Source: Coprothermobacterota bacterium (GTDB taxonomy: Bacteria > Caldisericota > JANLFM01). Taken from it: a stretch of DNA of 64,000 nucleotides. Each line of letters begins with the position of its first letter. Positions within the stretch are counted from its first letter, which is position 1. The notes under the pieces were generated by a model. The model saw only the letters and a list, made by a program, of their open reading frames with translations. It was not told the origin of the DNA and searched no databases. A program made the translations under genes and the position numbers. Below, piece after piece: positions 13,198 to 61,437 of this stretch. Location of the stretch: contig JAPLHV010000020.1 of NCBI GenBank assembly GCA_026389455.1, positions 16,447-80,446 on the forward strand, read 5' to 3'.

Positions 13198-13312
13198 GGA
13201 CACCCTGCCGGGGGCTGTCAAGATGCCGGGGGCTGTCAAGATGCCGGGGGCTGTCAAGATGCCGGGGGCTGTCAAGATGCCGGGGGCTGTCAAGATGCCG
13301 GGGGCTGGTTAC
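13198..13312 (+). repeat. Core-family array, 18-bp period, 5 units plus a terminal core (GCCGGGGGCTGTCAAGAT)
   Basis: GGACACCCT-(GCCGGGGGCTGTCAAGAT)x5-GCCGGGGGCT-GGTTAC, between the purB stop and the conserved argS body. Confidence 0.93.
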
Positions 13313-15013: not shown

Positions 15014-16051
15014 ATGGCTAAGGGAAATCCGTTTGGGATACATCGTGTGGTGGAGCCGCTGGGAGTGATGCCGCAAGCAGCCAAGAGACTGGACAACGAT
15101 ATGGGATCGATCCGCGACAATGAGATTTTGGTGGACGTGGAGCGATTGAACATTGATGCCGCCAGTTTTACCCAATTGGAGGAGGAGGGAGAGCGCGATA
15201 CCACCAAAATCGCCGGTTTGATCAAAAAGATCGTCAAAGAGCGTGGCAAGATGCATAACCCGATCACAGGCTCAGGGGGCATGTTCATCGGCGCCGTGAG
15301 GCAGGTGGGCAAGGATCTGGCCAGTCGAGACCTGAAACCCGGCGACAAAATCGCTTCACTGGTCTCTCTCACCCTGACTCCTCTTGCCTTGAAACGGATC
15401 AAGAAAATCGACCTTGAGAAGGACCAAGTAGAGGTTGAAGGACAGGCCGTGCTCTTCGAATCAGGAGTCTACGCCAAGCTGCCCGCCGACCTTCCGGATC
15501 GCCTCTCCCTTGCCCTCCTCGATGTGGCGGGCGCTCCAGCCCAAACTGCGCGGCTGGTCAAGCCGGGCGACGCAGCGCTGGTGATCGGCGGTGGAGGCAA
15601 GTCGGGGCTTCTCTGTCTTTACGAAGCCAAAAAGCGGGCAGGGGTGACCGGCCGAGTGATCGGGTTGGGGCACAGCGCCTCCTCCACCGAACGCATACGC
15701 GAGAGCGGATTCGCTGACCTGGCTATCCAGGGGGATGCTTCAAAGCCACTGGAAGTGTACGAAAAAATACTCGAGGTAACGGATGGGAAACTGATGGACG
15801 TCACCATTAACTGTGTCAACGTTCCCGGCACTGAAATGGCCTCCATTATGAGCACCCGCGAGGGGGGTATTGTTTACTTTTTCACCATGGCTACCAGCTT
15901 CACTGCGGCTGCCCTGGGAGCTGAAGGCATCGGCAAGGACGTGAACATGATCATCGGCAATGGTTTTGCCAAGGGACATGATCGGATCGCCTTTGAGTTA
16001 ATGCGGGAGAGCCCGAAATTGAGAGCTCTCTTCGAAAGAATGTTCCTCTAA
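15014..16051 (+). CDS. kdd: L-erythro-3,5-diaminohexanoate dehydrogenase
   Basis: 345-aa ORF. The N-terminus GIHRVVEPLGVMPQAAKRLDNDM...NEILVDVERLNIDAASFTQL matches my recollection of Kdd. It sits directly upstream of kamA in the lysine-fermentation cluster. Confidence 0.78.
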   Translation: MAKGNPFGIHRVVEPLGVMPQAAKRLDNDMGSIRDNEILVDVERLNIDAASFTQLEEEGERDTTKIAGLIKKIVKERGKMHNPITGSGGMFIGAVRQVGKDLASRDLKPGDKIASLVSLTLTPLALKRIKKIDLEKDQVEVEGQAVLFESGVYAKLPADLPDRLSLALLDVAGAPAQTARLVKPGDAALVIGGGGKSGLLCLYEAKKRAGVTGRVIGLGHSASSTERIRESGFADLAIQGDASKPLEVYEKILEVTDGKLMDVTINCVNVPGTEMASIMSTREGGIVYFFTMATSFTAAALGAEGIGKDVNMIIGNGFAKGHDRIAFELMRESPKLRALFERMFL

Positions 16052-16066
16052 GGAAGATCGTCACTC

Positions 16067-17281
16067 ATGCGAACCTGGAACGAGATCAATCCTTGGCGTG
16101 ATGTATCTCCGGAAGATTGGGGAGATTGGCGCTGGCAACTGAAACATCGCCTGACCACGGTAGACGAATTGAAGGAAGTGATCCATCTCTCCTTGACTGA
16201 AGAGGAGGGGATACGACTTGCTTTGAAAAGATTCCGCATGGCCATCACCCCTTACTATGTGTCACTGATGGATCCAGACGATCCCAACTGCCCGGTTCGC
16301 TTGCAGGGCGTGCCTCAAGCACAAGAGACGGTTCACGGTCAATTCGACCAGCTCGATCCATTGCACGAGGACGCTGACTCGCCGGTCCCTGGGTTGACCC
16401 ACCGTTACCCCGACCGCGTTCTTTTCTTGGTTACCGACCAGTGCGCCATGTACTGCAGATATTGCACGCGCCGCCGTTTTGCCGGCGCCTACGATCGCTC
16501 GCTTTCCAAGGCGGAGTTAGATCGCTCGTTGGAGTACATCCGCCGGACCCCAGTGGTGCGTGACGTCCTCCTCTCAGGCGGGGACGCCCTCCTACTGGAG
16601 CAGGAGCTTCTGGAATTCGTCTTGGTTGAACTGAGGAAGATCCCACACGTAGAGATCATCCGCATCGGTTCCAGGGTTCCCGTGACTCTCCCTCAACGCA
16701 TCACCGATGATCTGGTGACGATGCTGCGGCGCTACCACCCCCTTTGGTTGAACACGCATTTCAATCACAGTCGAGAGATTACACCGGAATCGACCGAAGC
16801 CTGCGCTAAATTGGCAGATGCCGGCATTCCCCTCGGCAACCAGAGCGTATTGCTGCGCGGGATCAACGATTGCCCGACGGTCATGAAGAAATTGGTCCAT
16901 GATCTGCTGAAGATCCGTGTGCGCCCCTACTATGTATATCAGTGCGACCTCTCGGAAGGGATCAGCCACTTCCGCACCTCAGCGCTGCGGGGAATCGAGA
17001 TGGTGGAAGCCCTGCGGGGTCATACCACCGGCTTGGCTGTTCCGACTTTCGTGGTGGACGCTCCGGGCGGTGGAGGGAAAATCCCAGTCGCACCGAACTA
17101 CGTGCTCTCGATCTCTCCAGAGAACGTCGTCTTGAGGAACTACCAGGGCTTGGTATATTCCTATCCGGAACCCGAAGCGATGTCCCGTCATGATCCGGCC
17201 CATTGCCCCACCTGTAGCCGCGATGGATCCCCGCAGAACAGTGTGCTCGACGGCAAGATCGGGCGGAGAGGCAATCATTGA
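16067..17281 (+). CDS. kamA: L-lysine 2,3-aminomutase (radical SAM)
   Basis: CxxxCxxC cluster motif CAMYCRYCTRR and the KamA-family N-terminus WRWQLKHRLTTVDEL. Confidence 0.92.
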   Translation: MRTWNEINPWRDVSPEDWGDWRWQLKHRLTTVDELKEVIHLSLTEEEGIRLALKRFRMAITPYYVSLMDPDDPNCPVRLQGVPQAQETVHGQFDQLDPLHEDADSPVPGLTHRYPDRVLFLVTDQCAMYCRYCTRRRFAGAYDRSLSKAELDRSLEYIRRTPVVRDVLLSGGDALLLEQELLEFVLVELRKIPHVEIIRIGSRVPVTLPQRITDDLVTMLRRYHPLWLNTHFNHSREITPESTEACAKLADAGIPLGNQSVLLRGINDCPTVMKKLVHDLLKIRVRPYYVYQCDLSEGISHFRTSALRGIEMVEALRGHTTGLAVPTFVVDAPGGGGKIPVAPNYVLSISPENVVLRNYQGLVYSYPEPEAMSRHDPAHCPTCSRDGSPQNSVLDGKIGRRGNH

Positions 17282-18426
17282 AGCGTGGCAGTCAGCCCGC
17301 GGCAGCGTGGTATTTAATGGCGGAGCGCCTTTCCTGGCCGGCCGTGGTGAGCGTGGTGGGGACCGGACGAGGTTCCGGGAAGACGACTGTGGCCAACGTC
17401 TTGCTGGAGGCGGGGCTACAGAACAAGAAGAGACTCGGCGTGATCCCGGCAGGAAAAGGGGGGCATGCTACCCCACTGCGTCTGCCCAAGGATACCTTGG
17501 TGGCGCTGGCTAAGAACTGTGAGCTGACACACCACCTGGAGTTGCGCGAGGAGTTGGAGGCCAACACTCCCTGGGGCGAAGTGTTGATCGGGAGGGTTCG
17601 GCAAGCGAGCGAGGCTGTCATCGCCGGCCCGGTTACATTGAACGATACGATTGTCGCTGCGCAGCGCTTGATTGCCGAAGGGGCCGAACTGGTGGTGGTA
17701 GATGGCTCCTTGGGTCGCTTATCGGCGAGCGATTCACACCTTGCCCAGCGCTACATTCTGGCGATGGGCGCCGACCCTGTCGACCGCTGGGCTCGAAAGG
17801 AGCAGTTGGAGCGTTTTCACACCATCACTCTAATGCCCAAGGGCCATTGGGAAATTCCCTCTCCGTCAGACCCTCGAAAACGAGGGCAGCCTGCCTTTTG
17901 GAATAAAGACCGCTGGATTCCGATCCCTGAACTTAACCCGGGACTCCCTGCCGGGGGCTACCAAGCTGCCGCGTCCTATCAAGCTGGACAAGCCCCCGGC
18001 AGGGAGTCCTATCTAGCTGGACAAGCCCCCGGCAGGGAGTCCTATCAAGCTGGACAAGCCCCCGGCAGGGAGTCCTATCAAGCTGGACAAGCCCCCGGCA
18101 GGGAGTCCTATCAAGCTGCCGATCTTGCAACTGCGGAGGCGCTCTACTGGCCCGGCGCTTTCACCGATCGAGCGACTCGTCTGTTAGACCGCTTTCCGTC
18201 TCCCCTGGCTCTGTTGCTGGATCAACCTTGGCATCTTCTCGCCAGCCAGGAGCGCTGGCAAGCGCTCTGGCGGGGAGGATGGTCATTCTTCGCACGGGAG
18301 AAAGCAACCTTAGCCTGGGTAGCTGTTAACCCACGTGCGTTGGATGGGCATTTAGAGAGCCCTGAGAGGTTGCTGGAGGAAGCGCGGATCGCTTTCCAGA
18401 CAGTGGAGTGCCGGCAACTGCAGTGA
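17278..18426 (+). CDS. P-loop NTPase-like protein, possible aminomutase accessory factor; carries an in-frame 33-bp x4 repeat insertion
   Basis: Walker-A-like VGTGRGSGKTT. It lies between kamA and the MutS-like gene. Repeat-encoded (YQAGQAPGRES)x4 at aa 234-277. Confidence 0.45.
   Translation: MKRGSQPAAAWYLMAERLSWPAVVSVVGTGRGSGKTTVANVLLEAGLQNKKRLGVIPAGKGGHATPLRLPKDTLVALAKNCELTHHLELREELEANTPWGEVLIGRVRQASEAVIAGPVTLNDTIVAAQRLIAEGAELVVVDGSLGRLSASDSHLAQRYILAMGADPVDRWARKEQLERFHTITLMPKGHWEIPSPSDPRKRGQPAFWNKDRWIPIPELNPGLPAGGYQAAASYQAGQAPGRESYLAGQAPGRESYQAGQAPGRESYQAGQAPGRESYQAADLATAEALYWPGAFTDRATRLLDRFPSPLALLLDQPWHLLASQERWQALWRGGWSFFAREKATLAWVAVNPRALDGHLESPERLLEEARIAFQTVECRQLQ
17941..18121. repeat. 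Composite: one forward element (17941-17959) facing four reverse 33-bp units (17977-18108) plus a partial
   Basis: GGACTCCCTGCCGGGGGCT ... (TATCAAGCTGGACAAGCCCCCGGCAGGGAGTCC)x4 (unit 2 has TATCTAG) ... TATCAAGCTGCCG. The forward copy is the exact reverse complement of the last 19 nt of each unit. Confidence 0.92.
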
Positions 18427-20093
18427 GCCAGAAGAACACCCTGCCGGGGGCTAGTTACTTTCTTGACCTGGAGACACGAGCTGGCCTGGAATGGGATGAG
18501 TTCCTCGGGTTGGTAGAGACCTATTCCCCCCTCGGCAGGGAGGTCAAAGGGCGGATTCAGCCATACCGGATGGGGCAGGAAAGAGAACTAAGGGCCGAGC
18601 TCCGGCGAACCAAGGCCATGGCTTCCTTTTTACTGAATCACCCCTCCTGGGGGGCTGAACAAGCTGTCTTGCTGCACGGTATTAAAGATATCCGCCGATC
18701 ATTGCGCCAAGCCCGTGAGGGATTTGTACTGACAACAGTGGAGCTGTTCGAATGCAAACGACTGCTCCTGCTCTTTAAAAGATTGCGAAAAGGAATGGAA
18801 CAACCTGGACTTGCATTCCTGGCCTCTCTTCGGCCAAAGGGCTGTCCGGCTCTTCTCCGCCTTCTTTCTTGCGGGGGCCAAAGCCAAGAGACCTTTTCAT
18901 TGGTGGAGGCTTATTCCCCCAACCTTGGACAGATCCGCCATCGCAAGGAGGTGCTGGAGAAGTTGTTGTTGGCAGAACGGGCAGGGGTCAATGAACTGCT
19001 TCGCCAGGACGGACTTCGCCTCGGGCGGGATGAAGAGATCACCGTCCAGCGTGGGAGCCCAGGCGCTGACCGTTGTCAAGAGGTTGACCGTCTCGTTCTC
19101 TATAGCGAGAGTTCGCAAACGATAGTATTTCGCCTTCGGCCCTCCCCCAAGTCGCTAAAATGGAGGGAAGAGTTGGAAACCCTCGCAATCGCCGCAGAGA
19201 GGGAGGAAAAGACGATCCGGGCTAGGCTGGGAAAGGCTATCGGTGAACAGTCTGAGGGCTTGATCGAGGATTTGGAGCGAGTCGGCCGCTTCGACCTGTT
19301 ATTGGCCAAGAGTCAACTTGCCAACAGCTACGGTGGCGCGTTACCCCACCTTCTCAGCGCCTCCTCACCGGTCGTCTTTCGACTGGAAGAAGGACGCCAC
19401 TGGCCGATGAGCATGCGCATGTTGGAGCGGGGCATTCTCTTCCAACCCCTCAGCATCGAGCTTTTAAAAGGAGCTGCTTTGGTCAGTGGATCCAATATGA
19501 GCGGGAAAACAGTCCTTCTTAAGACCATTGGGTTGTCCTGTGCCATGGTCCAGCACGGTTTCCTGGCGCCGGCCCAGGCAATGGAATGGGCGCTGCGTGA
19601 TTTCCTCTTTTTTTCCACTCGGCGGCGCGAGCAGGACGGGCTCTCCGCCTTCGGAGCGGAGGTGACCGGGATCAAGCGGGTGTTGGACCACCACCGAAGG
19701 GCTGGCTTGCTCCTGATCGATGAGCTGGCTCGAGGAACCAATCCCACCGAGGGTTTTGCTATCAATGCCGCTCTCCTTCTGTATATCAATCAGATGCCGG
19801 GAAGTGCACTTTTTACTTCTCACTTCGAGGGCTTGGCTCAAGCGACCGGTGTGATGCACTGGCAGATGGCAGGACTTGGCGAGATTAGCCTTGAGCAGGT
19901 GCAAGCGCTCATGCGAGAGGGCGGGGAGGCTATCCTTTCCAGCCTGATGCAGTATCGCCTGGAGAGAGTCGAGCCCGAACGCCGGGTGCCCCATGATGCC
20001 CTCAAGATCGCCCTCCTATTGGGGCTGGAAGAAGAGGTGATAGAGTTGGCTAGAGGATTCACGGAAAATCTCCAACGCGGAGTTTCCCCTTGA
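18408..20093 (+). CDS. MutS-related ATPase (MutS domain V only), lysine-cluster associated
   Basis: Motifs GSNMSGKTVLLKTIG (Walker A), LLLIDELARGTNPTEG (Walker B) and TSHF. No obvious mismatch-binding N-terminal domain. Confidence 0.78.
   Translation: MPATAVSQKNTLPGASYFLDLETRAGLEWDEFLGLVETYSPLGREVKGRIQPYRMGQERELRAELRRTKAMASFLLNHPSWGAEQAVLLHGIKDIRRSLRQAREGFVLTTVELFECKRLLLLFKRLRKGMEQPGLAFLASLRPKGCPALLRLLSCGGQSQETFSLVEAYSPNLGQIRHRKEVLEKLLLAERAGVNELLRQDGLRLGRDEEITVQRGSPGADRCQEVDRLVLYSESSQTIVFRLRPSPKSLKWREELETLAIAAEREEKTIRARLGKAIGEQSEGLIEDLERVGRFDLLLAKSQLANSYGGALPHLLSASSPVVFRLEEGRHWPMSMRMLERGILFQPLSIELLKGAALVSGSNMSGKTVLLKTIGLSCAMVQHGFLAPAQAMEWALRDFLFFSTRRREQDGLSAFGAEVTGIKRVLDHHRRAGLLLIDELARGTNPTEGFAINAALLLYINQMPGSALFTSHFEGLAQATGVMHWQMAGLGEISLEQVQALMREGGEAILSSLMQYRLERVEPERRVPHDALKIALLLGLEEEVIELARGFTENLQRGVSP
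18433..18458 (+). repeat. Single core-family element
   Basis: AGAACACCCTGCCGGGGGCTAGTTAC, 7 nt after the upstream stop. A degenerate reverse copy, CCCCCCTCGGCAGGGAGGTC, lies at 18526-18545. Confidence 0.85.
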
Positions 20094-20166
20094 GCGAAGT
20101 GAAGGGTTCCTGAGGTGGAACATTGGGGAAAGACCGCGATCTCGCGACTGTGAGGGAAAAACAAGA

Positions 20167-21801
20167 TTGCCAATGAGACTGCCGATTCCCACTGAACAAG
20201 TACGCCATTGCCGGCAACTGGCCGCCTCCATCGCGGGGGGAGTGCAAGATGAGATCAGCCCACTCTCCACCGTCTCGGTTGAGCGTTCTCTCCTGCGTTT
20301 GGTCGGCATCGAGGGCAGCAATCAAGAGAGTGTGCCGTTGGTGAATTGTTTCATCGATCAGCTCACCGGGCAGCGAGTCTTGGAGGACGGTGCGCTCTAT
20401 TGGTTAAGCAACGCCATCTTGGCCACGGGGGAAACGCCCCAAGGCATCGCCGAACGCGTGGGCGCAAGGTCGCTTGACCTTGTGCGGCTGCCTCGCCAAC
20501 CTCGGCGAGCGATTGAAAACCACTGCCGAGGGATCGTTCAGGATGCCTTGGTCACTCTCTTAGGCAAACGGCGCCGGCGGCGCGAGATGGAGGAAAGCTT
20601 AGCCCGAACCACGTCCCCATGGCTGTATGTGATCGTCGCCACCGGAAACATTTACGACGACATCGAACAGGCCAAGGCAGCCGCAGAACAGGGCGCCGAT
20701 GCTGTGGCGGTAATCCGCTCTACAGCTCAGAGCTTGCTGGACTATGTCCCCGAAGGGATTACCACCGAGGGGTTCGGCGGCACTTACGCCACTGGAGCAA
20801 ACTTCCGCTTGATGCGAGGCGCCTTGGACGAGGCTTCCCGTCAATCCAATCGCTATGTCCGCCAGGTCAACTATTGCTCTGGCCTTTGCATGGCCGAAAT
20901 CGCCGCTTTGGGAGTTCTGGAAGGTTTAGACATCCTCGTCAATGACGCTCTCTACGGGATTCTCTTTCGTGACTTGAACATGATTCGCACCATGGTTGAT
21001 CAGCATTTTTCGCGCTACTTGTTGGGCCTTTTCGATACAACCATCGTCACTGGCGAGGACAACCTGATCAAGACCATCGATGCGTTCGAGGAATATCCAA
21101 TCGTGCTTGTCTCCCAGTTTATCAACGAGCAATTGGCCAAGAATGCCGGGATGCGTGAGGAACGGATCGGCCTGGGTCATGCTGCCGAGTTGGACCCTGC
21201 GCTAGAGGACAGTTTTCTCAAGGAGCTGGTTCAAGCGCAATTGGTGCGACAGCTTTTTCCCCGCTCACCGGTCAAATTCATGCCTCCTACCCGTTACAAG
21301 AGCGGGAACATTTTCTTCGCTCACGTCTTGGATACACTTTTCAACTTGGTAGCTGTTTGGACCGATCAGGCGATCGTCCTTTTAGGGATGCCGACCGAAG
21401 CGATTCATACTCCCTATGTGCAAGACCGCTACCTGAGCTTGGAGTCTGCCTTGCACGTTCGTCGCGCGGCCGGCTCGTTGGGGCAGGAAGTGCGACTTAA
21501 ACCAAATGGCCAAGGCGCCGCCCGCGCCTGCTGGCTTCTGGCTAGAACCGAGGAATCTCTTACCCGAATTGCCGAGGAGGGGTTGTGGAACTCCCTGGCC
21601 AGCGGCGCCTTCTCTGCCATCAAACGCGCCAGGAGGGGCGGGAGAGGCTATGATGGCGTCTTCCGCAAAGGGCACTTCTATTTGAACCCCTTCCTCGACC
21701 GCGAGGTGGTGCGGAGAGCCAGAAGAAAGGTGGCGCAGAACACCCTGCCGGGGGCTATCGAGCTGCCGGGGGCTATCGAGCTGCCGGGGGCTGTAGTGTG
21801 A
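20167..21801 (+). CDS. kamD: D-lysine (beta-lysine) 5,6-aminomutase alpha subunit
   Basis: 544-aa ORF immediately upstream of and overlapping the B12-binding beta subunit, of KamD-family size, in the kam cluster. The C-terminal tail NTLPGAIELPGAIELPGAVV is repeat-encoded. Confidence 0.82.
   Translation: MPMRLPIPTEQVRHCRQLAASIAGGVQDEISPLSTVSVERSLLRLVGIEGSNQESVPLVNCFIDQLTGQRVLEDGALYWLSNAILATGETPQGIAERVGARSLDLVRLPRQPRRAIENHCRGIVQDALVTLLGKRRRRREMEESLARTTSPWLYVIVATGNIYDDIEQAKAAAEQGADAVAVIRSTAQSLLDYVPEGITTEGFGGTYATGANFRLMRGALDEASRQSNRYVRQVNYCSGLCMAEIAALGVLEGLDILVNDALYGILFRDLNMIRTMVDQHFSRYLLGLFDTTIVTGEDNLIKTIDAFEEYPIVLVSQFINEQLAKNAGMREERIGLGHAAELDPALEDSFLKELVQAQLVRQLFPRSPVKFMPPTRYKSGNIFFAHVLDTLFNLVAVWTDQAIVLLGMPTEAIHTPYVQDRYLSLESALHVRRAAGSLGQEVRLKPNGQGAARACWLLARTEESLTRIAEEGLWNSLASGAFSAIKRARRGGRGYDGVFRKGHFYLNPFLDREVVRRARRKVAQNTLPGAIELPGAIELPGAVV
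21737..21797 (+). repeat. Core-family array, 18-bp period, 3 cores (CTGCCGGGGGCTATCGAG)
   Basis: AGAACACC-CTGCCGGGGGCTATCGAG-CTGCCGGGGGCTATCGAG-CTGCCGGGGGCT-GTAGTG; it ends at the kamD stop/kamE start. Confidence 0.92.
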
Positions 21802-22541
21802 GCGAAGAGCGGCCATTCATCCGTCCCTACGGTGACCGCCTCAATGATGGCGCCGTGCAATTGTCCTTTAGTCTTCCCATCTCTCTCTCCGCCAGGAGCC
21901 GGGAAGCTGCCAAGTCCATCGCTGGTCGCCTGGGGTTGGAACAGATCCGCTTGGTCTCTGCTCTCGACCTGGGGAACGGCTTCTCTTTTTACATCCTTTA
22001 CGGCGCGACCACGGTGGAAATCGATGACCAGGCTATCCATCTCACCGAGGTGGAACGGCCTTTATTGGATTTCTGGCGTATCAACCAGTTGTTGGAGTTT
22101 GAGTTGAAGAAACGGGTGACGGTGGTTGGCGCCACCATTGGAACTGATGCCCACACCGTTGGCCTGGACGCTATCCTCAACGCCAAAGGCTTCGGCGGGG
22201 AATCCGGTCTGGAGAGGTATCCTCAGTTCCGGGTGGTGAACCTAGGAGCTCAGGCGCCTCCGGATGAGGTTCTGGAAGCGGCTCGGGAACAGCGTGCCGA
22301 TGTTGTCCTCGTTTCGCAAGTGGTTACCCAAAGAAATGCCCATCTGGAGAATCTCTCTCTTCTCGCCGAGATGCTCGAGGCGGAGGGACTACGGCAGGAT
22401 CTTCTCTTGATCTGCGGAGGACCCTACATCGATAGCCAGGTCGCACTGGAGGTCGGCTTTGACGCCGCCTTCGGGCCAGGCACGACGCCGCTGGCGGTGG
22501 CCAGTCTAATCGTCGAAGAGCTCCTGCGGAAAGCCCAATGA
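21798..22541 (+). CDS. kamE: D-lysine (beta-lysine) 5,6-aminomutase beta subunit (B12-binding)
   Basis: Cobalamin-binding DxHxxG motif (GTDAHTVGLD). The GTG start overlaps the kamD stop (GTGTGA). Confidence 0.85.
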   Translation: MSEERPFIRPYGDRLNDGAVQLSFSLPISLSARSREAAKSIAGRLGLEQIRLVSALDLGNGFSFYILYGATTVEIDDQAIHLTEVERPLLDFWRINQLLEFELKKRVTVVGATIGTDAHTVGLDAILNAKGFGGESGLERYPQFRVVNLGAQAPPDEVLEAAREQRADVVLVSQVVTQRNAHLENLSLLAEMLEAEGLRQDLLLICGGPYIDSQVALEVGFDAAFGPGTTPLAVASLIVEELLRKAQ

Positions 22542-24301
22542 GCAAACTGATCTTTATCACCGGGGGGGTTGTCTCTGGGATCGGCAAGGGGATCCTGGCC
22601 GCTTCCATCGGCGCCCTGATTAAGGGGCGAGGGTATCGGGCGAGCATGATCAAGTGCGACCCGTACCTGAACGTGGACACAGAACACGCTGCCGCGGGCT
22701 TTCTAGCTGCCGCGGGCTTTCTAGCTGCCGCGGGCTTTCTAGCTGCCGCGGGCTTTCTAGCTGCCGCGGGCTTTCTAGCTGCCGCGGGCTTTCTAGCTAG
22801 CTGCCGCGGGCTTTCTAGCTGCCGCCCCTACCAGCATGGAGAAGTTTTCGTGTTGAAAGATGGCGCCGAAACAGACCTCGACTTGAGCCACGATGAGCGT
22901 TTCATCGATGAGGATCTGGACCAGTTGGCCAATGTCGCCTCAGGCCGGATCTACTCGGCTGTGATCGCCAAAGAACGGCGAGGCGAGTATTTGGGAGCCA
23001 CGGTGCAGTTGATTCCGCACGTGACCAACGAGATCATGGATGCCATCAAGGGCGCCCTCGAACATTCCAAAGCGGAAATATTGGTGGTGGAGATCGGCGG
23101 CACGGTGGGCGACATCGAAGGGCTCCCCTTCCTGGAGGCCATCCGCCAACTGCGTCGCAGCTTTCCGCCGGAAGATCTTCTCTACGTCCACACCACCCTC
23201 GTGCCATTCCTGGAAACCACACAAGAGGCAAAGACGAAACCGACCCGGCGCTCTGTCGCCGAGTTGCGCAGTATCGGCATCCAACCGAATGTTGTCGTTT
23301 GTCGATCGCGACGAGCGATTTCCCGTAAGCTGTGGGAGAAAGTGGCTCTCTTCTGCGACGTCGATCAAGAGCAGGTGATCTCTCTACCCGACTTGAACTC
23401 TATTTACCGGGTTCCTCTTTTTTTGCAGCGGGAGGGTTTCTCCGCCATCTTGGACCGTTTCCTCGGCGAAAGGCGTACTGCAGATCTGGCAATGTGGGAA
23501 CGGCTGGAACGTATCCTAGAGAGCCCGCATCCGCAGCTCCGCGTCGGCGTGGTGGGCAATTGCGTAGGGATGCGCGACACTTACATCTCGGTCAACGAAG
23601 CCCTGAAGCATGCTTCAATGGAAGAAAAGTTGGATCTCCAGTTGGTATGGGCGCCCTCAGAGAAGTTGACCTCCGGTCGGGTACGGGAGGGGAAGGACCT
23701 CTCTGGAATACTCGGCGAGCTGGATGGGATTGTAGTGCCGGGCGGTTTCGACCCCAGGGGGGTGGAAGGGAAAATCGCAGCAGTAGAATACGCTCGTTGC
23801 CAAGGTGTCCCGTATTTTGGCCTTTGCCTGGGATTACAGTGCGCGGTTATCGAATTCGCTCGCCACGTCTGCGGCTTAGAGGCGGCTAACAGCACGGAAT
23901 TCGATCCTCTCACCCCCTACCCAGTCATCGACCTTATGGCAAATCAACGCGGCTTGGAGGCCAAGGGCGGCGCCATGCGTCTAGGAGCATACCCGTGCGC
24001 TGTGCAAGAGGGTAGCGAGGCGTGGCGAGCCTTTGGCCAAGATATCGTCTGGGAGCGTCATCGCCACCGTTACGAATTGAACAATGAGTATCTTCACCTC
24101 TTGGAACAAGGAGGGTTGGTTGTCTCCGGACGATACGAAGAACTGGGCTTGGCCGAAATCATTGAACTTCCTGGACATCCATGGTTTCTTGGCACACAGT
24201 TTCACCCAGAGTTGACTTCACGACCAGGAAAACCGAATCCACTGTTTCACCAATTTATCAGAGCTTGCGCGAGGAGAGCTAGTTTTCGATGGAAAAACTG
24301 A
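22538..24301 (+). CDS. pyrG: CTP synthase, divergent, with a 147-nt repeat-derived in-frame insertion
   Basis: N-terminal FITGGVVSGIGKG, VEIGGTVGDIE, GATase GLCLGLQ and HRHRYE. The insertion at 22679-22825 replaces the expected GTMS segment. Confidence 0.85.
   Translation: MSKLIFITGGVVSGIGKGILAASIGALIKGRGYRASMIKCDPYLNVDTEHAAAGFLAAAGFLAAAGFLAAAGFLAAAGFLAAAGFLASCRGLSSCRPYQHGEVFVLKDGAETDLDLSHDERFIDEDLDQLANVASGRIYSAVIAKERRGEYLGATVQLIPHVTNEIMDAIKGALEHSKAEILVVEIGGTVGDIEGLPFLEAIRQLRRSFPPEDLLYVHTTLVPFLETTQEAKTKPTRRSVAELRSIGIQPNVVVCRSRRAISRKLWEKVALFCDVDQEQVISLPDLNSIYRVPLFLQREGFSAILDRFLGERRTADLAMWERLERILESPHPQLRVGVVGNCVGMRDTYISVNEALKHASMEEKLDLQLVWAPSEKLTSGRVREGKDLSGILGELDGIVVPGGFDPRGVEGKIAAVEYARCQGVPYFGLCLGLQCAVIEFARHVCGLEAANSTEFDPLTPYPVIDLMANQRGLEAKGGAMRLGAYPCAVQEGSEAWRAFGQDIVWERHRHRYELNNEYLHLLEQGGLVVSGRYEELGLAEIIELPGHPWFLGTQFHPELTSRPGKPNPLFHQFIRACARRASFRWKN
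22681..22825 (+). repeat. Core-family array (CGCGGG variant), 18-bp period, 7 units plus a 4-nt slip plus a partial core, inside pyrG
   Basis: AGAACAC-(GCTGCCGCGGGCTTTCTA)x6-GCTA-GCTGCCGCGGGCTTTCTA-GCTGCCGC. Confidence 0.93.
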
Positions 24302-25107
24302 TCATCACCGTCGCCATCTGTGGCGCGGAAGTAAGAAAAACGGATCACCCGGCACTGCCGGTGTCGGCGCAGGAATTGGGCGATGAGAGCTTTCGGGCTT
24401 ACCAGGCCGGCGCTTCAGTAGTCCACTTGCATGTGCGCAAGGATGACGGCTCGCCCACCCAGGACGCCATTGTATTCGCGCGGGCGATGGAAGCCATCCG
24501 CAGCCGTTGCGACATCATTATCCAGACTTCCACCGGAGGAGCGGTGGGGATGAGCGCGGAAGAACGATCGTCTCCCCTCACCCTCAACCCGGAGATGGCT
24601 ACTTTGACCTGCGGCACCGTCAATTTTGGGGAGGGCGTCTTCTGGAACCCGCCCGAATTAATTGAGAGATTCGCCCGCATGATGATGGAGCGAGGCATCA
24701 AGCCGGAGATTGAGGTTTTCGAGGCGGGAATGATTGCCAATGCCTTGCGGCTGGTAAAGAAGGGGATTCTCCACCTGCCCCTGCACTTCGATTTCGTCAT
24801 GGGGGTTCCGGGTGGGATCACGGCCTCAGCCCGCGATCTGGTCTATCTGGTGGAAAGCCTTCCCGATGGCTGCACCTGGACGGTAGCTGGGATAGGCCGG
24901 GCAGAACTGCAACTGGCTGCCGTGGCCATCGTGATGGGCGGAAATGTTCGCTGCGGTTTCGAGGACAACCTCTTCTACCGCAAAGGCGAGCCTGCCACCC
25001 ACAACAGCCAACTCGTAGATCGGATTGCCAGGCTATCGAAGGAGCTAGGGCGCGAGGTGGCTGAACCGGACGAAGCTCGGCTCATCCTGGGGATCTCGAA
25101 AAAGTAG
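24289..25107 (+). CDS. kce: 3-keto-5-aminohexanoate cleavage enzyme (BKACE family)
   Basis: 272-aa ORF with the BKACE/DUF849-type N-terminus LIITVAICGAEVRKTDHPALPVS...VVHLHVR, in the lysine-cluster context. Confidence 0.82.
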   Translation: MEKLIITVAICGAEVRKTDHPALPVSAQELGDESFRAYQAGASVVHLHVRKDDGSPTQDAIVFARAMEAIRSRCDIIIQTSTGGAVGMSAEERSSPLTLNPEMATLTCGTVNFGEGVFWNPPELIERFARMMMERGIKPEIEVFEAGMIANALRLVKKGILHLPLHFDFVMGVPGGITASARDLVYLVESLPDGCTWTVAGIGRAELQLAAVAIVMGGNVRCGFEDNLFYRKGEPATHNSQLVDRIARLSKELGREVAEPDEARLILGISKK

Positions 25108-25137
25108 CCAGGGCCTCGGCGGGATCCGATCGATCAG

Positions 25138-25821
25138 ATGACTTTCAGCAACTATCAAGAAATGGTTTTGGGTACATTTTTAAACGAGCTCTCCTCCCGT
25201 GCGGCGACACCCGGCGGAGGAGCGGCTGCCGGCTTGGTTGCTGCCATGGGCGCCAGCCTTGGGGCGATGGCGGCGGCGCTCAGTCAGGGAATCCGTCATT
25301 CAAGACGCGCTGTCGCAGGCTGTTCTGTGGCAGGTAAGAACACGCTGCCGCGGGCTATAATGAAGGAATTGGAGGAACGTTTTTTAGAGAGCCGCGACCG
25401 TTGTTTGTTCTTTGCCGACCAGGATTCAGCCGCCTTCCAGCATTGGATGGCAGCCACTCGGATGTCTTATGAAGATCCGGCTGCTCGGGAGGAAGCCCTC
25501 CGAGCGGCGATGGAGGGGGCTTGCCGCCCGCCGATGGCTTTGGGAGAGGAGGTTTCCGGCCTGCAAGACGCGCTGGCGACCCTGCAAGAACACGGCAACG
25601 TTCGCGTCCTCAGCGATGTCGGAGCCGCCCTTGCCCTCTTGACTGCCGCCTTAGAGATTTCAATTCTCAACCTCCGAATCAATCAACAAGGGATTACTGA
25701 TCCTTATTTTCTAGGACGACTTATTCAATCAGTCGCATCGTTCGATCGTGCCTGTGCGGTGATGCGAGAATGGGAATCACAAATAAGGGCACGATTAGAA
25801 GGAGAAGCGTGGAATGAATGA
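25138..25821 (+). CDS. Cyclodeaminase/cyclohydrolase family protein (FTCD C-terminal-like)
   Basis: N-terminal FLNELSSRAATPGGGAAAGLVAAMGASLGAMAA. It contains a single repeat element (encoding ...GKNTLPRAIM...). Confidence 0.75.
   Translation: MTFSNYQEMVLGTFLNELSSRAATPGGGAAAGLVAAMGASLGAMAAALSQGIRHSRRAVAGCSVAGKNTLPRAIMKELEERFLESRDRCLFFADQDSAAFQHWMAATRMSYEDPAAREEALRAAMEGACRPPMALGEEVSGLQDALATLQEHGNVRVLSDVGAALALLTAALEISILNLRINQQGITDPYFLGRLIQSVASFDRACAVMREWESQIRARLEGEAWNE
25309..25362. repeat. Single element (25337-25362, forward) with an imperfect inverted partner (25309-25327)
   Basis: GCTGTCGCAGGCTGTTCTG ... AGAACACGCTGCCGCGGGCTATAATG. Confidence 0.8.
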
Positions 25822-27013
25822 AGTCTGGATTTGTTCTGCCAAGCGGACTGCGATTGGCGCCTTCATGGGGAGTTTGAAAGATATTCCCGCGGTTGACCTC
25901 GGCGCCATCGTCGTCAAGGCCATCCTGGCGGAGACCGGAGTTCCGCCCGCCCAGATCAGCGAGCTGATCGCCGGCTGTGCGCTGCCTGCTGGACAGGGTA
26001 TGAACCCAGCTCGGCAAATTGCCCTGAAGGCAGGTCTGCCTGTAGAATCAACCGCCTTCACGGTCAATCGCGTCTGCGGCTCGGGTTTGCAAGCAGTTGT
26101 CAGCGGCGCCCAGGAGATTCTTCTCGGGGAGGCTGACCTGATCCTTGCAGGGGGCATCGAGAATATGAGCCGAGCTCCCTATCTCCTCCCCAAGGCCCGA
26201 GCCGGTTTCCGCCTGGGCAATGAGACAATTGTCGACGGGATGATTGGAGATGGCCTATGGGATGTTTTTACCGATGAGCACATGGGCTCGACTGCAGAGA
26301 ATTTGGCTGCCAAATACGGGATCAGTCGTCAGGAGCAGGACGAGTTTGCTCTAGCCAGTCAGCGGAAAGCAGGCCAAGCCATCCGGGAGGGACGATTCAA
26401 AGACGAGATTGTGCCTGTCTTGGCGCCCCAAGGGAAAGGTGAATCACTTTCGTTTCAAATGGACGAGTGCGTGCGTCTGGACGCGAGCCCGGAAAAGCTA
26501 GTCCGGCTGCGCCCCGCTTTTAAGAAAGATGGCACAGTGACGGCTGGGAACTCCTCTGGGATTAACGATGGCGCCGCGTTCGTCTTGTTGGTTTCTGGAA
26601 ACCGCGTAAAAGAGCTGGGGCTAAAGCCCCTGGCGATCATCCGCAGTTGGGCAGTCGCCGGCGTGGAACCTGGAGAGATGGGATTGGGACCCGTGCCGGC
26701 AACACGGAAAGCATTGACCAAAGCCAGCGTGTTGCTGGATCAGGTCGAGTTCCTGGAATTGAACGAAGCCTTTGCCGCCCAGTCTCTGGCAGTCTTGCGA
26801 GAGCTCCAAATTTCTCCCGAGCGCGTCAACCTAAACGGAGGAGCGATCGCCCTCGGCCATCCGATTGGCGCTTCAGGCGCGCGTATTCTAGTCACCCTTT
26901 TGCATGAGATGGCGCATCGCCCGTACCCGACCGGAGCTCAAGTCTGTACTGGTTTGGCCGCTCTTTGCATCGGCGGTGGCCAGGGGATTGCCCTCCTAGC
27001 GGAACGGGTGTAG
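25814..27013 (+). CDS. Acetyl-CoA C-acetyltransferase (thiolase II)
   Basis: Active-site region [11 protein letters not shown] and C-terminal motifs [19 protein letters not shown] and [11 protein letters not shown]. Confidence 0.92.
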
Positions 27014-27761: not shown

Positions 27762-29270
27762 ATGCCTAAGTACACACTGGAAGAACTGAACGAAAAGAAA
27801 GCGATCGAGCTGCAACGAATGGCGAGCGAGAAGGGCATCCCGTACTACAATCGATACAAGAAAGTTGAGTTGGCTCAACTCCTTTTCGAGCGGATGGTCC
27901 AAGAGGAACCCCCACCGCCGGCGCCCCCCCCGGTGGCGCCGAAACCAATCGCCAAGCCTGTCGACAATCGAGAACCTCGTGACCGCTCGGAGTCTCGTGA
28001 AAACACAAACCGGGGAGAGACTAGAGACTATCGGGATCGCCCCGAGACTCATGAATACCGGGAAAGATCGGAACAGCGAGAGGGGCGGGACCGGCAAGAG
28101 CCGCGGGAGACGAGGGAAGCGCCGCGAGAGGAAAAGACCACTGTAAAGGAGGAGCCTGTTCGTGGCGACCTGGTGGCAGGAGTCCTCGAGATCCACGAGG
28201 AAGGTTATGGTTTCCTGCGCTCTCACTATGTCCCTTCTCCCACCGATATCTACGTCTCTCCCTCGCAGATCAAACGGTTCGGCCTGCGCGATGGCGACAT
28301 GATCGCCGGATGGGTGCGCCAGCCGATGGAAAAGGAGAAATACCTGGCCTTACTGCGCGTGAAGGAGGTCAATGGGTTGGATCCAGAGGTGTCCCGCAAC
28401 CGCCCACTCTTTGAAAGCTTGACCCCAATCTTCCCGAACAAGCGGCTTCGTCTGGAGACCACCCCTTTCGAATACTCCACGCGTCTCATTGATCTTATCT
28501 CACCATTAGGGCGCGGCCAGCGAGGGATGATCGTTTCCCCGCCGAAGGCCGGCAAGACCACCATCCTAAAGAAGACAGCCCAGGCTATCACCCGTAATTA
28601 CCCCGATATGGCAGTGATGGTCCTGCTTGTCGACGAGCGGCCCGAGGAGGTGACTGACTTCAAACGCTCCACCAGCGCAGAAGTAGTCGCCTCGACCTTC
28701 GATATGTTGCCGGAGAATCACATTCGCGTGGCTCGCTTGGTGTTGGAGAAAGCCAAGCGTTCTGTGGAGCAAGGCAAAGACGTAGTCATTCTGCTGGACG
28801 GAATCACTCGACTGACGCGAGCTTATAACGCTGTGATGCCTTCATCCGGGCGTACCCTCTCCGGGGGTTTGGATCCAGTGGCTATCCACGGCCCGAAGAG
28901 TTTCTTCGGCGCAGCCCGCAACATCGAAGAAGGGGGCAGCCTGACCATCCTTGCCACCGCCCTGGTGGAGACCGGATCCAAGATGGACGAGGTGATCTTC
29001 GAGGAGTTCAAGGGAACGGGCAATTTCGAGTTGGTCTTGGACCGCAAGATCTTTGAGCGTCGCGTCTTCCCCGCCTTGGACATCAAGCGTTCCGGCACGC
29101 GCCGCGAAGAACTTCTTTACAACGAGGACGAATTGCGCAAGATCTGGAACATCCGCAGGGCTTTATCTGCATTGGAGTCAGGGGAAGCGCTCGAAAAGTT
29201 GCTTGATCTGTTGACCAAGACCAAGTCAAACACCGAATTCCTACGTTATATCGGGAGCGACGAGATATAG
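27762..29270 (+). CDS. rho: Transcription termination factor Rho with an Arg/Glu/Pro-rich N-terminal insertion
   Basis: N-terminal [19 protein letters not shown]-binding GYGFLR, Walker A PPKAGKTT and C-terminal [25 protein letters not shown]. Confidence 0.93.
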
Positions 29271-30464
29271 ATGGAGGTGGAATTGCTTGCCTGGACACCG
29301 CAGCCGGAGAGAACATGCGCTGCCGCGGCCAGGCTCTGCACAAGTGATAGCTCCCCCCTCCAAGCGATTTGGCAGGGATTGAGCGATGAGCGGGTAAAGA
29401 GCGCCATTGCACAGGTGTTAAAAAACGGCCACCTTTCCATCTTAGAACATGCTAGTTTTACTTTTGCGGCCGTCGGTCTTTCACGAGCATGCACTCATCA
29501 ACTGGTACGGCATCGCGTCGCTTCTTTCGCCCAGCAGAGTCAACGCCATCTCCCAGTGCGTGACAGAACAGCCTGCGGCAGCATGTCTACTTGCGGCAGC
29601 ATGTCTACTTGCGGCAGCATGTCTCGTTTCGTGACTCCACCAAGCTTGCGTGGTCACGATCAAGCCCAACGGTTGTTTCGGGAAACCTACTCTCGATCTC
29701 AAGACGTCTATCAGCAGTTACTCATTCTTGGCATTCCGTCGGAGGATGCACGTTACATACTGCCGCAAGCTTGCTCCACCCGAATTCTTTTCACCATGAA
29801 TGCCCGCGAATTGCGCCATTTCCTCCGGATGCGTTGCTGCGAGAAAGCTCAATGGGAAATCCGCGGCCTGGCCTGGCTGGTTCGTCAGCGCCTACTGCGG
29901 GTCGCCCCTGGTTTATTCGGCGATTCCGGCCCAACCTGCTTCGAGACAGATTGTCCCGAGCAGGATTACGTTTGCCGGCGCGAGAAGTCAGCTTTCTTCC
30001 AAAGTTCTTATCACTTGTTTCGTGAACGCTTGCAGAGGCTCGGCTTGATTCTAGCGGAACGTCGCTTGCCTGCAGCCGGTTTGCACCCCTTAGCGACTTC
30101 CAAGATGCTTGGATGCCGGCAGGAGGAGCTGCTTCGCCCAATCTTGATCGAGTGCGGAGAGCGATTCGCTCTGTTGCTCTCTGCGAAGCCCGAGACCGCC
30201 TTGGCGAAAGTTAACGTGCGAACAAACGAAGAGTGGCGTCTCGCCGCTGCGGCTCGATACCGCAAGCTTGGCATCTCTCCTCTAGCCTGCCCCTGGCTCT
30301 TTACAAACGGTGAGGAACAGGTTACTGCTTTCTGGGATAGCAGCTTGGACTGCCAAGGCACACTTGTTTTTAACTTGGCTTCGGCTTGGCGTTTCGCCAC
30401 CCTGCCACCTCGATGCATCGAAGAAATAGCGTCTTGCAGTGGATACACAATCGAGAAGGTGTAA
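29271..30464 (+). CDS. thyX: Flavin-dependent thymidylate synthase ThyX with an in-frame repeat insertion and a ~170-aa C-terminal extension of unknown function
   Basis: ThyX motif [13 protein letters not shown]. (CGSMST)x3 is encoded by the array at 29564-29624. 397 aa against roughly 220-250 typical. Confidence 0.8.
29564..29624 (-). repeat. Core-family array (GCAAG/GCAGG variant), 18-bp period, 3 units, inside thyX
   Basis: The plus strand reads CAGAACA-GCCTGCGGCAGCATGTCT-ACTTGCGGCAGCATGTCT-ACTTGCGGCAGCATGTCT. The reverse complement has the unit AGACATGCTGCCGCAAGT. Confidence 0.9.
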
Positions 30465-41273: not shown

Positions 41274-41387
41274 TAGCCCCCGGCAGCTTGATAGCCCCCG
41301 GCAGCTTGATAGCCCCCGGCAGCTTGATAGCCCCCGGCAGCTTGATAGCCCCCGGCAGCTTGATAGCCCCCGGCAGGGTGTTACTGG
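41274..41387 (-). repeat. Core-family array, reverse orientation, 18-bp period, 5 units plus a terminal element
   Basis: (TAGCCCCCGGCAGCTTGA)x5-TAGCCCCCGGCAGGGTGTTACTGG. Confidence 0.93.
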
Positions 41388-41392
41388 CATGA

Positions 41393-41443
41393 TGGCGGAA
41401 AGAAGACATGCCGCCGCAGGCTGTTTAGATATGCTGCCGCAGG
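41393..41443. repeat. Two degenerate core-family copies (GCAGG variant)
   Basis: AGACATGCCGCCGCAGGCTGTTTAGAT and ATGCTGCCGCAGGGTGTTCTGTC. Confidence 0.75.
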
Positions 41444-41596
41444 GTGTTCTGTCAGCGCTTCAACGTTTCCCTCCACAAGGTTGGGGGGCAAGACAGCAGA
41501 CCTCCGGTCAGTTCGGGCAGCATTCCCGCATGGAAGCGGCCTGGGTGGGGACCAGCCAGACTGCGGTGGAGGAGACCTGCGCCGCATTGCTGTTAC

Positions 41597-61319: not shown

Positions 61320-61437
61320 GGACTCCCTGCCGGGGGCTGTAGTCTCCCTGCCGGGGGCTGTCAAGATGCCGGGGGCTGTCAAGATGCCGGGGGCTGTCAA
61401 GATGCCGGGGGCTGTCAAGATGCCGGGGGCTAGACTG
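61320..61437 (+). repeat. Core-family array: 2 cores 21 bp apart, then 18-bp units (GCCGGGGGCTGTCAAGAT) x3 plus a terminal core
   Basis: GGACTCC-CTGCCGGGGGCTGTAGTCTCC-CTGCCGGGGGCTGTCAAGAT-(GCCGGGGGCTGTCAAGAT)x3-GCCGGGGGCT-AGACTG. The unit is identical to the argS array. Confidence 0.93.

Follow-up and report, generated by a model that had tools for sequence, protein, structure and literature searches.

What becomes of an enzyme when a repeat array takes the place of one of its invariant loops? CTP synthase, encoded by pyrG, is the sole de novo route to CTP, and the loop that lines its ammonia tunnel and contacts GTP is invariant from bacteria to humans. We analysed a 64,000-nt stretch of Coprothermobacterota DNA (contig JAPLHV010000020.1, positions 16,447 to 80,446; hereafter the window), in which pyrG carries, at the site of this loop, an in-frame array derived from a short dispersed repeat, and in which near-invariant residues elsewhere in the same protein have also been replaced.

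A repeat array in the place of a conserved loop

The array belongs to a repeat family whose element consists of an 8-10 nt leader, (C)AGRACWCS, then CTGCCGSGGGCT as the core (12 nt) and NTCNAG as the tail (6 nt). The features of the gene and its insert are as follows.

22538..24301, plus strand: pyrG (CTP synthase) open reading frame (ORF), 587 amino acids (aa), from profile matches and synteny
22679..22825, plus strand: element-derived segment, 147 nt, encoding TEH(AAAGFL)6ASCRGLSSCR (49 aa)
22679-22687, plus strand: element flank ACAGAACAC, 9 nt
22679..22688, plus strand: element leader ACAGAACACG, 10 nt, homeologous to native GCAGGCACG
22688..22795, plus strand: 18-bp unit GCTGCCGCGGGCTTTCTA in six perfect copies, translated as AAAGFL
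22796..22799, plus strand: GCTA slip, 4 nt (CTAG/GCTA duplication)
22800-22817, plus strand: seventh unit
22818-22825, plus strand: 8-nt partial core GCTGCCGC

The window protein has the full-length, two-domain architecture of CTP synthase. Its scores of 699.9 bits for NCBIfam PRK05380 (cutoff 308) and 680.1 bits for TIGR00337 (cutoff 462.75) are above the curated equivalog level, and it matches Pfam CTP_synth_N and GATase with 348 and 110 bits. Matches in the PDB reach 7e-167, and both the profile and the PDB matches are cut into two stretches by the insert. The start of pyrG overlaps the stop of kamE (ATGA, 22538-22541), and its last 13 nt (24289-24301) overlap the start of kce. The gene order kamD-kamE-pyrG-kce-FTCD_C-thiolase-...-rho-thyX-tdk is the same in contigs of related metagenome-assembled genomes (MAGs; L001, L002, L003/4 and L005), and the 4-nt kamE/pyrG and 13-nt pyrG/kce overlaps are also present in four related MAGs. 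Since these relatives share the kamD-kamE-pyrG-kce order and the overlaps while lacking the insert, the window pyrG is an orthologue at its ordinary syntenic locus and not a paralogue.

The nearest proteins among 5.8 billion (P0001, P0002, P0003 and P0004; 537-543 aa) are all free of the insert and read NVDAGTMSPYQH, where the window protein reads MSKLIFITGGVVSGIGKG...KCDPYLNVD-TEH-(AAAGFL)x6-ASCRGLSSCR-PYQHGEVF. P0001, from MAG LacPavin_0920_SED2_MAG_58_15, labelled Coprothermobacterota, is 93% identical to the window protein over aligned columns; the canonical PyrG of related MAGs are 82-93% identical to the window protein. At the DNA level the window and L001, its closest relative, are ~91% identical, and collinearity is lost only at the window arrays. 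The exact window protein is absent from protein records, none of the best 120 of 8000 scored homologues bears an insert, and the pyrG-array junction pattern has no match in JGI metagenomes. The insert peptide likewise has no match among the 5.8 billion proteins, a search in which composition filtering may hide matches.

The array anatomy proposed in the initial annotation, a 147-nt segment at 22679-22825 that replaces the GTMS stretch, is exact by ORF reading, Tandem Repeats Finder and DNA alignment. In Tandem Repeats Finder the 18-bp array spans 22688-22825 and scores 240, with 7.4 copies, 93% matches and 6% indels; the parts add up as 9+108+4+18+8 = 147 nt. Alignment with four orthologous loci shows that 15 native nt, GCA GGC ACG ATG AGC (AGTMS), have been replaced, so that native GAC GCA GGC ACG ATG AGC CCC has become GAC ACAGAACACG, the array, then CTGCCGC CCC; at the right end (part of 22800..22825) a truncated core, GCTGCCG(C), abuts native CCCTAC. 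The gene is longer by 132 nt as a result, a net 44 codons.

What was lost is not a naturally variable segment. All 70 homologues, including the 93%-identical P0001, have (A/P)GTMS at the array site; AGTMS or PGTMS is found clade-wide, and G, T and M are each at least 90% conserved, which bears out the near-invariance stated in the initial annotation. The conserved (A/P)GT(M/F)S loop before P-x-x-H is absent from the window PyrG. The initial annotation had expected a profile alignment to find no GTMS-equivalent residues. HMMER places the array-encoded S-C-R on T-M-(S/R), so the positions are filled and the residues are not conserved: the expectation holds for the residues and fails for the positions.

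A leader, n units and the truncated end amount to 17 + 18n nt which, minus the 15 native nt, gives a +2 shift and a stop 11 codons on. The GCTA slip switches the array from the AAAGFL frame to the CRGLSS frame and brings back the downstream pyrG frame; the third frame has a TAG. Without GCTA the change would be 143-15 = +128 nt, a frameshift, so the earlier arithmetic, in which the slip offsets the 8-nt partial core, is correct. Other arrays in the window are mostly perfect, and the one array that needs a frame correction carries it. The frame restored by the GCTA duplication speaks for selection to keep the pyrG ORF open, with a 1-in-3 coincidence as the other possibility. Apart from enzyme function, avoiding polarity on downstream genes is a possible reason for keeping the ORF open. 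In mid-operon, pyrG has no internal promoter-like signals and no convincing terminator signals, Rho is encoded nearby, and kce has a separate GAGGAG, 12 nt upstream of the kce ATG.

The gene lies inside a lysine-fermentation cluster with overlapping start and stop codons (KDD, kamA, kamD, kamE, kce, thiolase; window 15014-27013), an unusual home for pyrG that is kept clade-wide. A six-residue indel in the glutaminase domain, TSGRVR (window 23660-23680, PyrG residues ~378-383), is found in P0002 and P0003 and not in P0001 or P0004, and looks like ordinary polymorphism of a variable loop.

Residue replacements and the fate of the enzyme

The insert is accompanied by replacements at conserved positions.

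22886..22894, plus strand: G117S and Y119D, DLDLGHYERF to DLDLSHDERF (E. coli G74, Y76)
22937-22939, plus strand: T134A
23246..23251, plus strand: Q237R and H238R, KTKPTQHS to KTKPTRRS (E. coli Q192/H193, Drosophila Q197/H198)
23558..23563, plus strand: K341N and Y342C, VGKY to VGNC (E. coli K297/Y298, human CTPS2 K306/Y307)
23972..24034, plus strand: T479A (GGTMRLG to GGAMRLG) and Y499F, glutaminase domain

Across the 168 columns that are at least 97% conserved in 70 homologues, the window PyrG has 13 outliers, 10 of them outside the junction. This is the highest count of the 71 sequences (median 1), and nine of the ten non-junction outliers are unique to the window protein (G117S, Y119D, T134A, Q237R, H238R, K341N, Y342C, T479A and Y499F). 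P0001 has no replacement unique to it in a 10-sequence alignment. In the same window, Rho has no outliers at 138 columns that are at least 97% conserved, and ThyX, itself insert-bearing, has none over 43 columns with a conservation of 90% or more. With Rho and ThyX as the window comparison genes, it is established that erosion at near-invariant sites is confined to pyrG. The SHDERF and KTKPTRRS deviations named in the initial annotation are thus real, and GNC, GGAMRLG and T134A can be added to them.

The affected positions can be placed on a known structure. In the 2.5-Å structure of Drosophila CTP synthase, the ammonia tunnel is built in part by residues 50-58, the Phe50 backbone is hydrogen-bonded by GTP, the GTP triphosphate is bound by Lys306 and Tyr307 (through hydrogen bonds) and by Arg376, and the UTP phosphates are bound by Lys192, Thr193 and Lys194; activity is nearly abolished in the F50A mutant and likewise when any single GTP contact is lost (PMC8325340). 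Mapping of residues through PDB sequences equates window C95 with E. coli M52 and Drosophila F50, and Q237R/H238R adjoin the UTP-binding residues K192, T193 and K194 (Drosophila numbering). With a Kyte-Doolittle mean of 1.93 over 36 residues, the insert is strongly hydrophobic. AlphaFold2, run on a 71-sequence alignment, gives a predicted local distance difference test (pLDDT) score of ~30 at residues 45-100, PYQH included, and a confident prediction outside them (mean 83, predicted template modelling score 0.84).

From these features we consider the chances about even that GTP-activated, glutamine-dependent activity has been lost or severely impaired, with the ORF kept open for residual function or operon reasons. 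Canonical activity would probably be affected because constraint has been lost at the GTP-contacting Lys-Tyr, at the Gln-His by the UTP loop and at the Gly and Tyr of GHYERF. In the sequence of events that we propose, a copy of the short dispersed repeat would have hit pyrG in one lineage and overwritten the AGTMS loop. The junction would then have been out of frame until the 4-nt GCTA duplication inside the array restored it, and an open ORF may have been favoured through residual function or through the absence of polarity on the downstream lysine-fermentation genes. Constraint would later have been lost at several functional sites, with the fold and the catalytic core motifs kept.

Several observations speak against a loss of function. 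The loss of pyrG is costly and demands cytidine salvage or a second gene. The gene has no stops or frameshifts, and the catalytic residues are all kept: the P-loop GKG, K39, D113/D115, E185, GGTVGDIE and the Cys430-His556-Glu558 triad, so the P-loop, GGTVGDIE and GATase Cys/His/Glu motifs that had been called intact are indeed unchanged among the invariant columns. The likely equivalence of window K341/Y342 to Drosophila Lys306/Tyr307 is drawn from the motif and human CTPS2 numbering. Pairwise dN/dS (the ratio of nonsynonymous to synonymous rates) is 0.107 for pyrG. The ratio of nonsynonymous to synonymous changes (N:S) on the window branch is 16:41 for pyrG against 87:233 in the other 12 genes (p = 0.87). 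A simple model of constraint followed by neutral drift fits only moderately (rough Poisson p ~0.02-0.05), and part of PyrG is clearly still under purifying selection. On the L001 branch, N:S of pyrG is 5:29 (p = 0.20). The informative codons divide as follows.

Window branch, conserved class (104 codons): 15 synonymous, 7 nonsynonymous
Window branch, variable class (236 codons): 26 synonymous, 9 nonsynonymous
L001 branch, conserved class: 8 synonymous, 0 nonsynonymous
L001 branch, variable class: 20 synonymous, 5 nonsynonymous

Nonsynonymous changes on the window branch therefore track codon numbers (7:9 conserved to variable, against 104:236 codons; p = 0.19), and the corresponding figure on the L001 branch is 0:5. 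The special protection of conserved sites is gone, while the whole protein is still far from neutral. We do not claim positive selection on pyrG from these counts. Uniform pseudogene drift is rejected on the ordinary pairwise dN/dS and branch N/S, and the substitution pattern does not fit an old pseudogene. As for the hallmarks of a pseudogene, constraint has been lost at family-invariant residues, and there is neither a frameshift or stop nor a dN/dS near 1. Decay, which the initial annotation had offered as one option, finds support in the nine unique near-invariant replacements, and the ordinary N/S and the ORF that has been kept open speak against it. The pattern fits a recent or partial loss of function, or the relaxation of a GTP- or tunnel-related function only.

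The main alternative, possible if less likely, is that the loop is tolerated and regulation remodelled. The insert would project from the GTP cleft and CTP would still be made, with ammonia used directly or without GTP activation; the replacements at the GTP and UTP sites would be compensatory, or would reflect relaxation of the allosteric function only. The intact ORF with its frame restored by the 4-nt slip, the intact catalytic residues and the ordinary N/S, both overall and at variable sites, agree with this, as does the prediction that the remainder of PyrG folds well. The replacements are moreover paired at ligand sites (K341N/Y342C, Q237R/H238R, G117S/Y119D) and not scattered, and seven other genes of the syntenic block with inserts of the same family, including thyX and argS, look functional. 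There is also a precedent in a Rickettsia guanylate kinase that bears a Rickettsia palindromic element (RPE) and is active with altered substrate affinity (PMC2229807). Tolerance is harder to reconcile with the replacement of an invariant segment, unlike the insertion in thyX, with 36 strongly hydrophobic residues at mean hydropathy 1.93, and with nine radical unique changes at invariant sites. The near inactivity of Drosophila F50A at the equivalent position, and of mutants that lose GTP contacts, points the same way (PMC8325340).

It is quite unlikely that misassembly of a repeat-rich MAG, or consensus errors, produced the array or the substitutions. The exact protein is on record nowhere, the junction is absent from JGI metagenomes, and arrays of 100-150 bp are hard to span with short reads. 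Both flanks are nevertheless collinear pyrG, and native pyrG has no long k-mer in common with the element, which makes a detour in the assembly graph unlikely. The array is in frame and has a specific 4-nt variant, members of the family are present in four independent MAGs and two JGI contigs, at orthologous sites and elsewhere, and Rho and ThyX of the same window have no odd substitutions.

Very unlikely, too, is a neofunctionalised or decaying paralogue with a canonical pyrG elsewhere in the genome. Deviant ligand-site residues and the unusual position of pyrG in a lysine-fermentation operon could be taken to suggest one. That position, however, is the conserved site of the only pyrG seen at each related MAG locus, where the copies are canonical and 82-93% identical; synteny, overlaps and 93% identity show an orthologue, and the paralogue raised in the initial annotation can be set aside, although the analysis covered 64 kb of the genome and a second copy may lie outside it. 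Removal of the insert after transcription or translation (intein, intron or translational bypass), which would leave a normal mature enzyme, has nothing more than an in-frame insert in its favour and is barely conceivable, as the AGTMS codons are absent from the DNA and so unrestorable, Pfam finds no intein or Hint domain, the junctions D|TEH and SCR|P are not intein-like in a pure hexapeptide repeat, hops between identical GCTGCCGC sites land out of frame, and there is no Rfam intron and an array that folds no better than shuffled sequence.

The dispersed repeat family and the probable source of the pyrG copy

The core CTGCCGSGGGC occurs in 45 copies in the window against 0.12 expected, at ~17 element loci on both strands with a common leader. 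Tandem units that follow the leader and core are mostly 18 bp long, and periods of 19, 22 and 33 bp are also seen. In the 22-kb syntenic block there are 29 core copies in the window and two in L001. Enrichment of the family is confined to a handful of genomes: among the genome-contig matches listed, three related MAGs have multiple element loci, and in the metagenome scan two JGI contigs match the array pattern. At an orthologous intergenic locus upstream of kamD, we found 1, 3 and 4 units in L001 (7668-7690), L005 (7635-7681) and L003 (562-626), respectively, and no element in the window (~20074-20173); these copy-number differences are minisatellite behaviour. Over the element loci of the window and of the clade (L001-L102), the base that ends the leader is the complement of the one in the middle of the core in 48 of 49 copies (38 C..G, 10 G..C, 1 C..C), a covariation that may mark two subfamilies. 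A hairpin model was rejected, as the 3-5 bp hairpin is no more stable than shuffles (DNA folding z -0.96 to +0.88). The 64-kb window holds no transposase, REP-associated tyrosine transposase (RAYT; REP, repetitive extragenic palindrome) or reverse transcriptase and only housekeeping genes, and Rfam gives no match to an intron or other RNA family. The core sequences occur in no relevant paper of the literature searched, and the family appears to be undescribed.

Insertions of this family are common within genes. Relative to L001, eight of the 18 genes of the 22-kb block carry in-frame additions, each a multiple of 3 nt.

13199..13308, plus strand: argS, +36 aa right after the GTG start, in frame, with ATG in every unit
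17948..18118, strand not assigned: hyp327, element cluster of +44 aa; a further +11 aa elsewhere in the gene
MutS-like gene: +7 aa
21736..21795, plus strand: kamD, +19 aa C-terminal extension QNTLPGAIELPGAIELPGAVV, with the GTGTGA overlap with kamE kept
pyrG: +44 aa net
FTCD_C: two 21-nt units
29568..29626, minus strand: thyX, +18 aa, core on the minus strand
DUF1385: +18 aa

These insertions are in frame by construction, as the addition is 21 nt for a lone unit and 18 nt for each unit of an array. Alignments of filled and empty sites show no target-site duplication; at each site the insert stands in place of a few native bases.

Some of these insertions deserve description. The start of argS (13199-13308) and that of pth (61327-61431) carry the same array unit, GTCAAGATGCCGGGGGCT, in frame; with an ATG in each unit, translation could begin at any of them, and the last unit nearly rebuilds the native N-terminus (MPGAGYLQALG for MYYLQALG, and MPGARLIVGLGNPG). 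The thyX insert encodes TACGSMS repeats seven residues past the RHR...SQR signature, in a naturally variable loop. In the FTCD_C-like gene (25270-25365), two single-unit insertions of 21 nt, 12 nt apart, one degenerate (GACGCGCTGTCGCAGGCT) and one intact (AAGAACACGCTGCCGCGGGCT), together add 14 aa. Downstream of infB (41274-41448), a 5.7-unit array precedes a 23-bp x 2 repeat, AGACATGCCGCCGCAGGCTGTTT, and the core of this repeat is similar to the variant in thyX. The region 62000-64000 has no convincing long ORF; the array found there (63006-63088, minus strand) has five units and several open frames. As for rho (window 27762-29267), a 455-aa Rho fragment on a 1.5-kb ENA contig of sample ERZ1426712 is 100% identical, which indicates that the same strain was sampled elsewhere.

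The pyrG copy was probably not transposed. It was probably copied instead, by homeologous recombination or template switching, from hyp327, 4.6 kb upstream; native pyrG CCTGAACGTTGACGCAGGCACG happens to resemble the flank and leader of the hyp327 copy and would have guided the copying. Between the native pyrG site, CCTGAACGTTGACGCAGG-CACGATG, and the hyp327 flank and leader in L001, CCTGAAC-TTGACCCAGGACACGCTG, 22 of 26 positions agree, a score that none of 2000 shuffles reached, and no other non-self sequence in L001 (21.6 kb, both strands) matches the pyrG site as well as the hyp327 locus does. The hyp327 copy of MAG ELA551 (L005) and the pyrG copy have a common 13-nt leader, GACACAGAACACG (the leader at 22679..22688 is identical to that at L005 5430-5441), the same truncated right end, AGCTGCCG, and a similar reading frame (DTEHAAAGYL in L005, DTEHAAAGFL in pyrG). 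The hyp327 cluster, in its ancestral state, is thus the likely donor locus, and homology-guided copying from it would explain both the replacement of native bases and the missing duplication. On the other side, in L005 the match of hyp327 to the pyrG site ranks only second. The wider idea that empty target sites generally resemble the element failed at nine sites (combined p = 0.53), where only the pyrG/hyp327 pair stands out, and the copying model, resting on one locus pair, is weakly grounded.

The gene hyp327 (window 17278-18426) encodes an uncharacterised P-loop protein and has a different element configuration in each genome. There is a decayed 2-unit copy in L001 (5553-5620), plus- and minus-strand copies that face each other in L005 (5420-5560), a 33-bp x 4.4 array in the window, and apparently no element in L002. 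The family may have in hyp327 a source locus that is old and evolves fast.

A bolder proposal, which we regard as improbable, is that the family is an active, coding-compatible 'minisatellite seeder' that spreads by homology-guided copying and remodels the housekeeping proteome. The hydrophobic (AAAGFL)6 segment would then be no damage but a constitutive plug for the cleft otherwise sealed by GTP, yielding a GTP-independent or membrane-associated CTP synthase in which the coordinated loss of the GTP-contacting Lys-Tyr followed as an adaptation.

Comparison with known systems

The window PyrG resembles canonical enzymes (E. coli 1S1M, T. thermophilus 1VCM, Drosophila 7DPT) in its two domains, catalytic residues and genomic position. 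It differs from them in the loop before Pro-x-x-His, a tunnel wall and GTP ribose contact, which here consists of 49 array-encoded residues, in the Asn-Cys that stands for the GTP-contacting Lys-Tyr, and in KTKPTRRS and SHDERF. A natural in-frame loop swap with 93%-identical insert-free orthologues lends itself to testing whether the enzyme can do without the loop and without GTP activation, and if the enzyme proves to be dead, it would be evidence that the organism lives on cytidine salvage.

As a GC-rich, short, dispersed repeat, the element recalls REPs and bacterial interspersed mosaic elements (BIMEs); it sometimes forms inverted pairs (hyp327; L005 5442-5532), and what may be two subfamilies differ by a complementary base pair. 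Unlike REPs and BIMEs, its 3-5 bp hairpin is no better than shuffled sequence, its copies are common inside genes, and no RAYT is encoded in the 64-kb window. With intragenic minisatellites, or variable number tandem repeats (VNTRs), the arrays share perfect head-to-tail units that are uniform within an array and a multiple of three in length, as well as copy numbers of 1, 3 and 4 at one orthologous locus, which is intergenic; the pyrG array is seen in one genome. In contrast to VNTRs, the core recurs at ~17 unrelated loci per 64 kb behind a conserved leader, which indicates that the arrays were seeded by a spreading sequence and did not originate locally, and the hosts are cytoplasmic housekeeping enzymes where VNTRs occur in surface proteins.

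The closest parallels are RPEs and bacterial MITEs, or miniature inverted-repeat transposable elements. In 2000, Ogata et al. reportedly described RPEs in frame within conserved protein genes. Fusion in frame into conserved protein genes is documented for both RPEs (PMC2229807) and the MITEs of Coxiella (PMC5896051). Like them, the window element is multi-copy, dispersed, non-autonomous and short, and lies between and inside genes; it is open in most frames and co-translated in housekeeping enzymes, and its insertions are lineage-specific. The differences are substantial. The window unit measures 21-30 nt against 100-170 bp for RPEs and MITEs, it has no long terminal inverted repeats, stable stem-loop or target-site duplication (often TA), and its copies expand to perfect tandem arrays, mostly of 18 bp period. 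Where such elements occupy surface sites, the pyrG insert replaces an invariant functional loop. In one lineage the family is found in almost half of the genes of a 22-kb housekeeping block, and in hardly any of those of the closest relative. These observations bear on how selfish DNA enters coding sequence without destroying it and on the outcome of a bad landing site, and with the window family the RPE phenomenon comes to include an element that is far smaller and builds tandem arrays.

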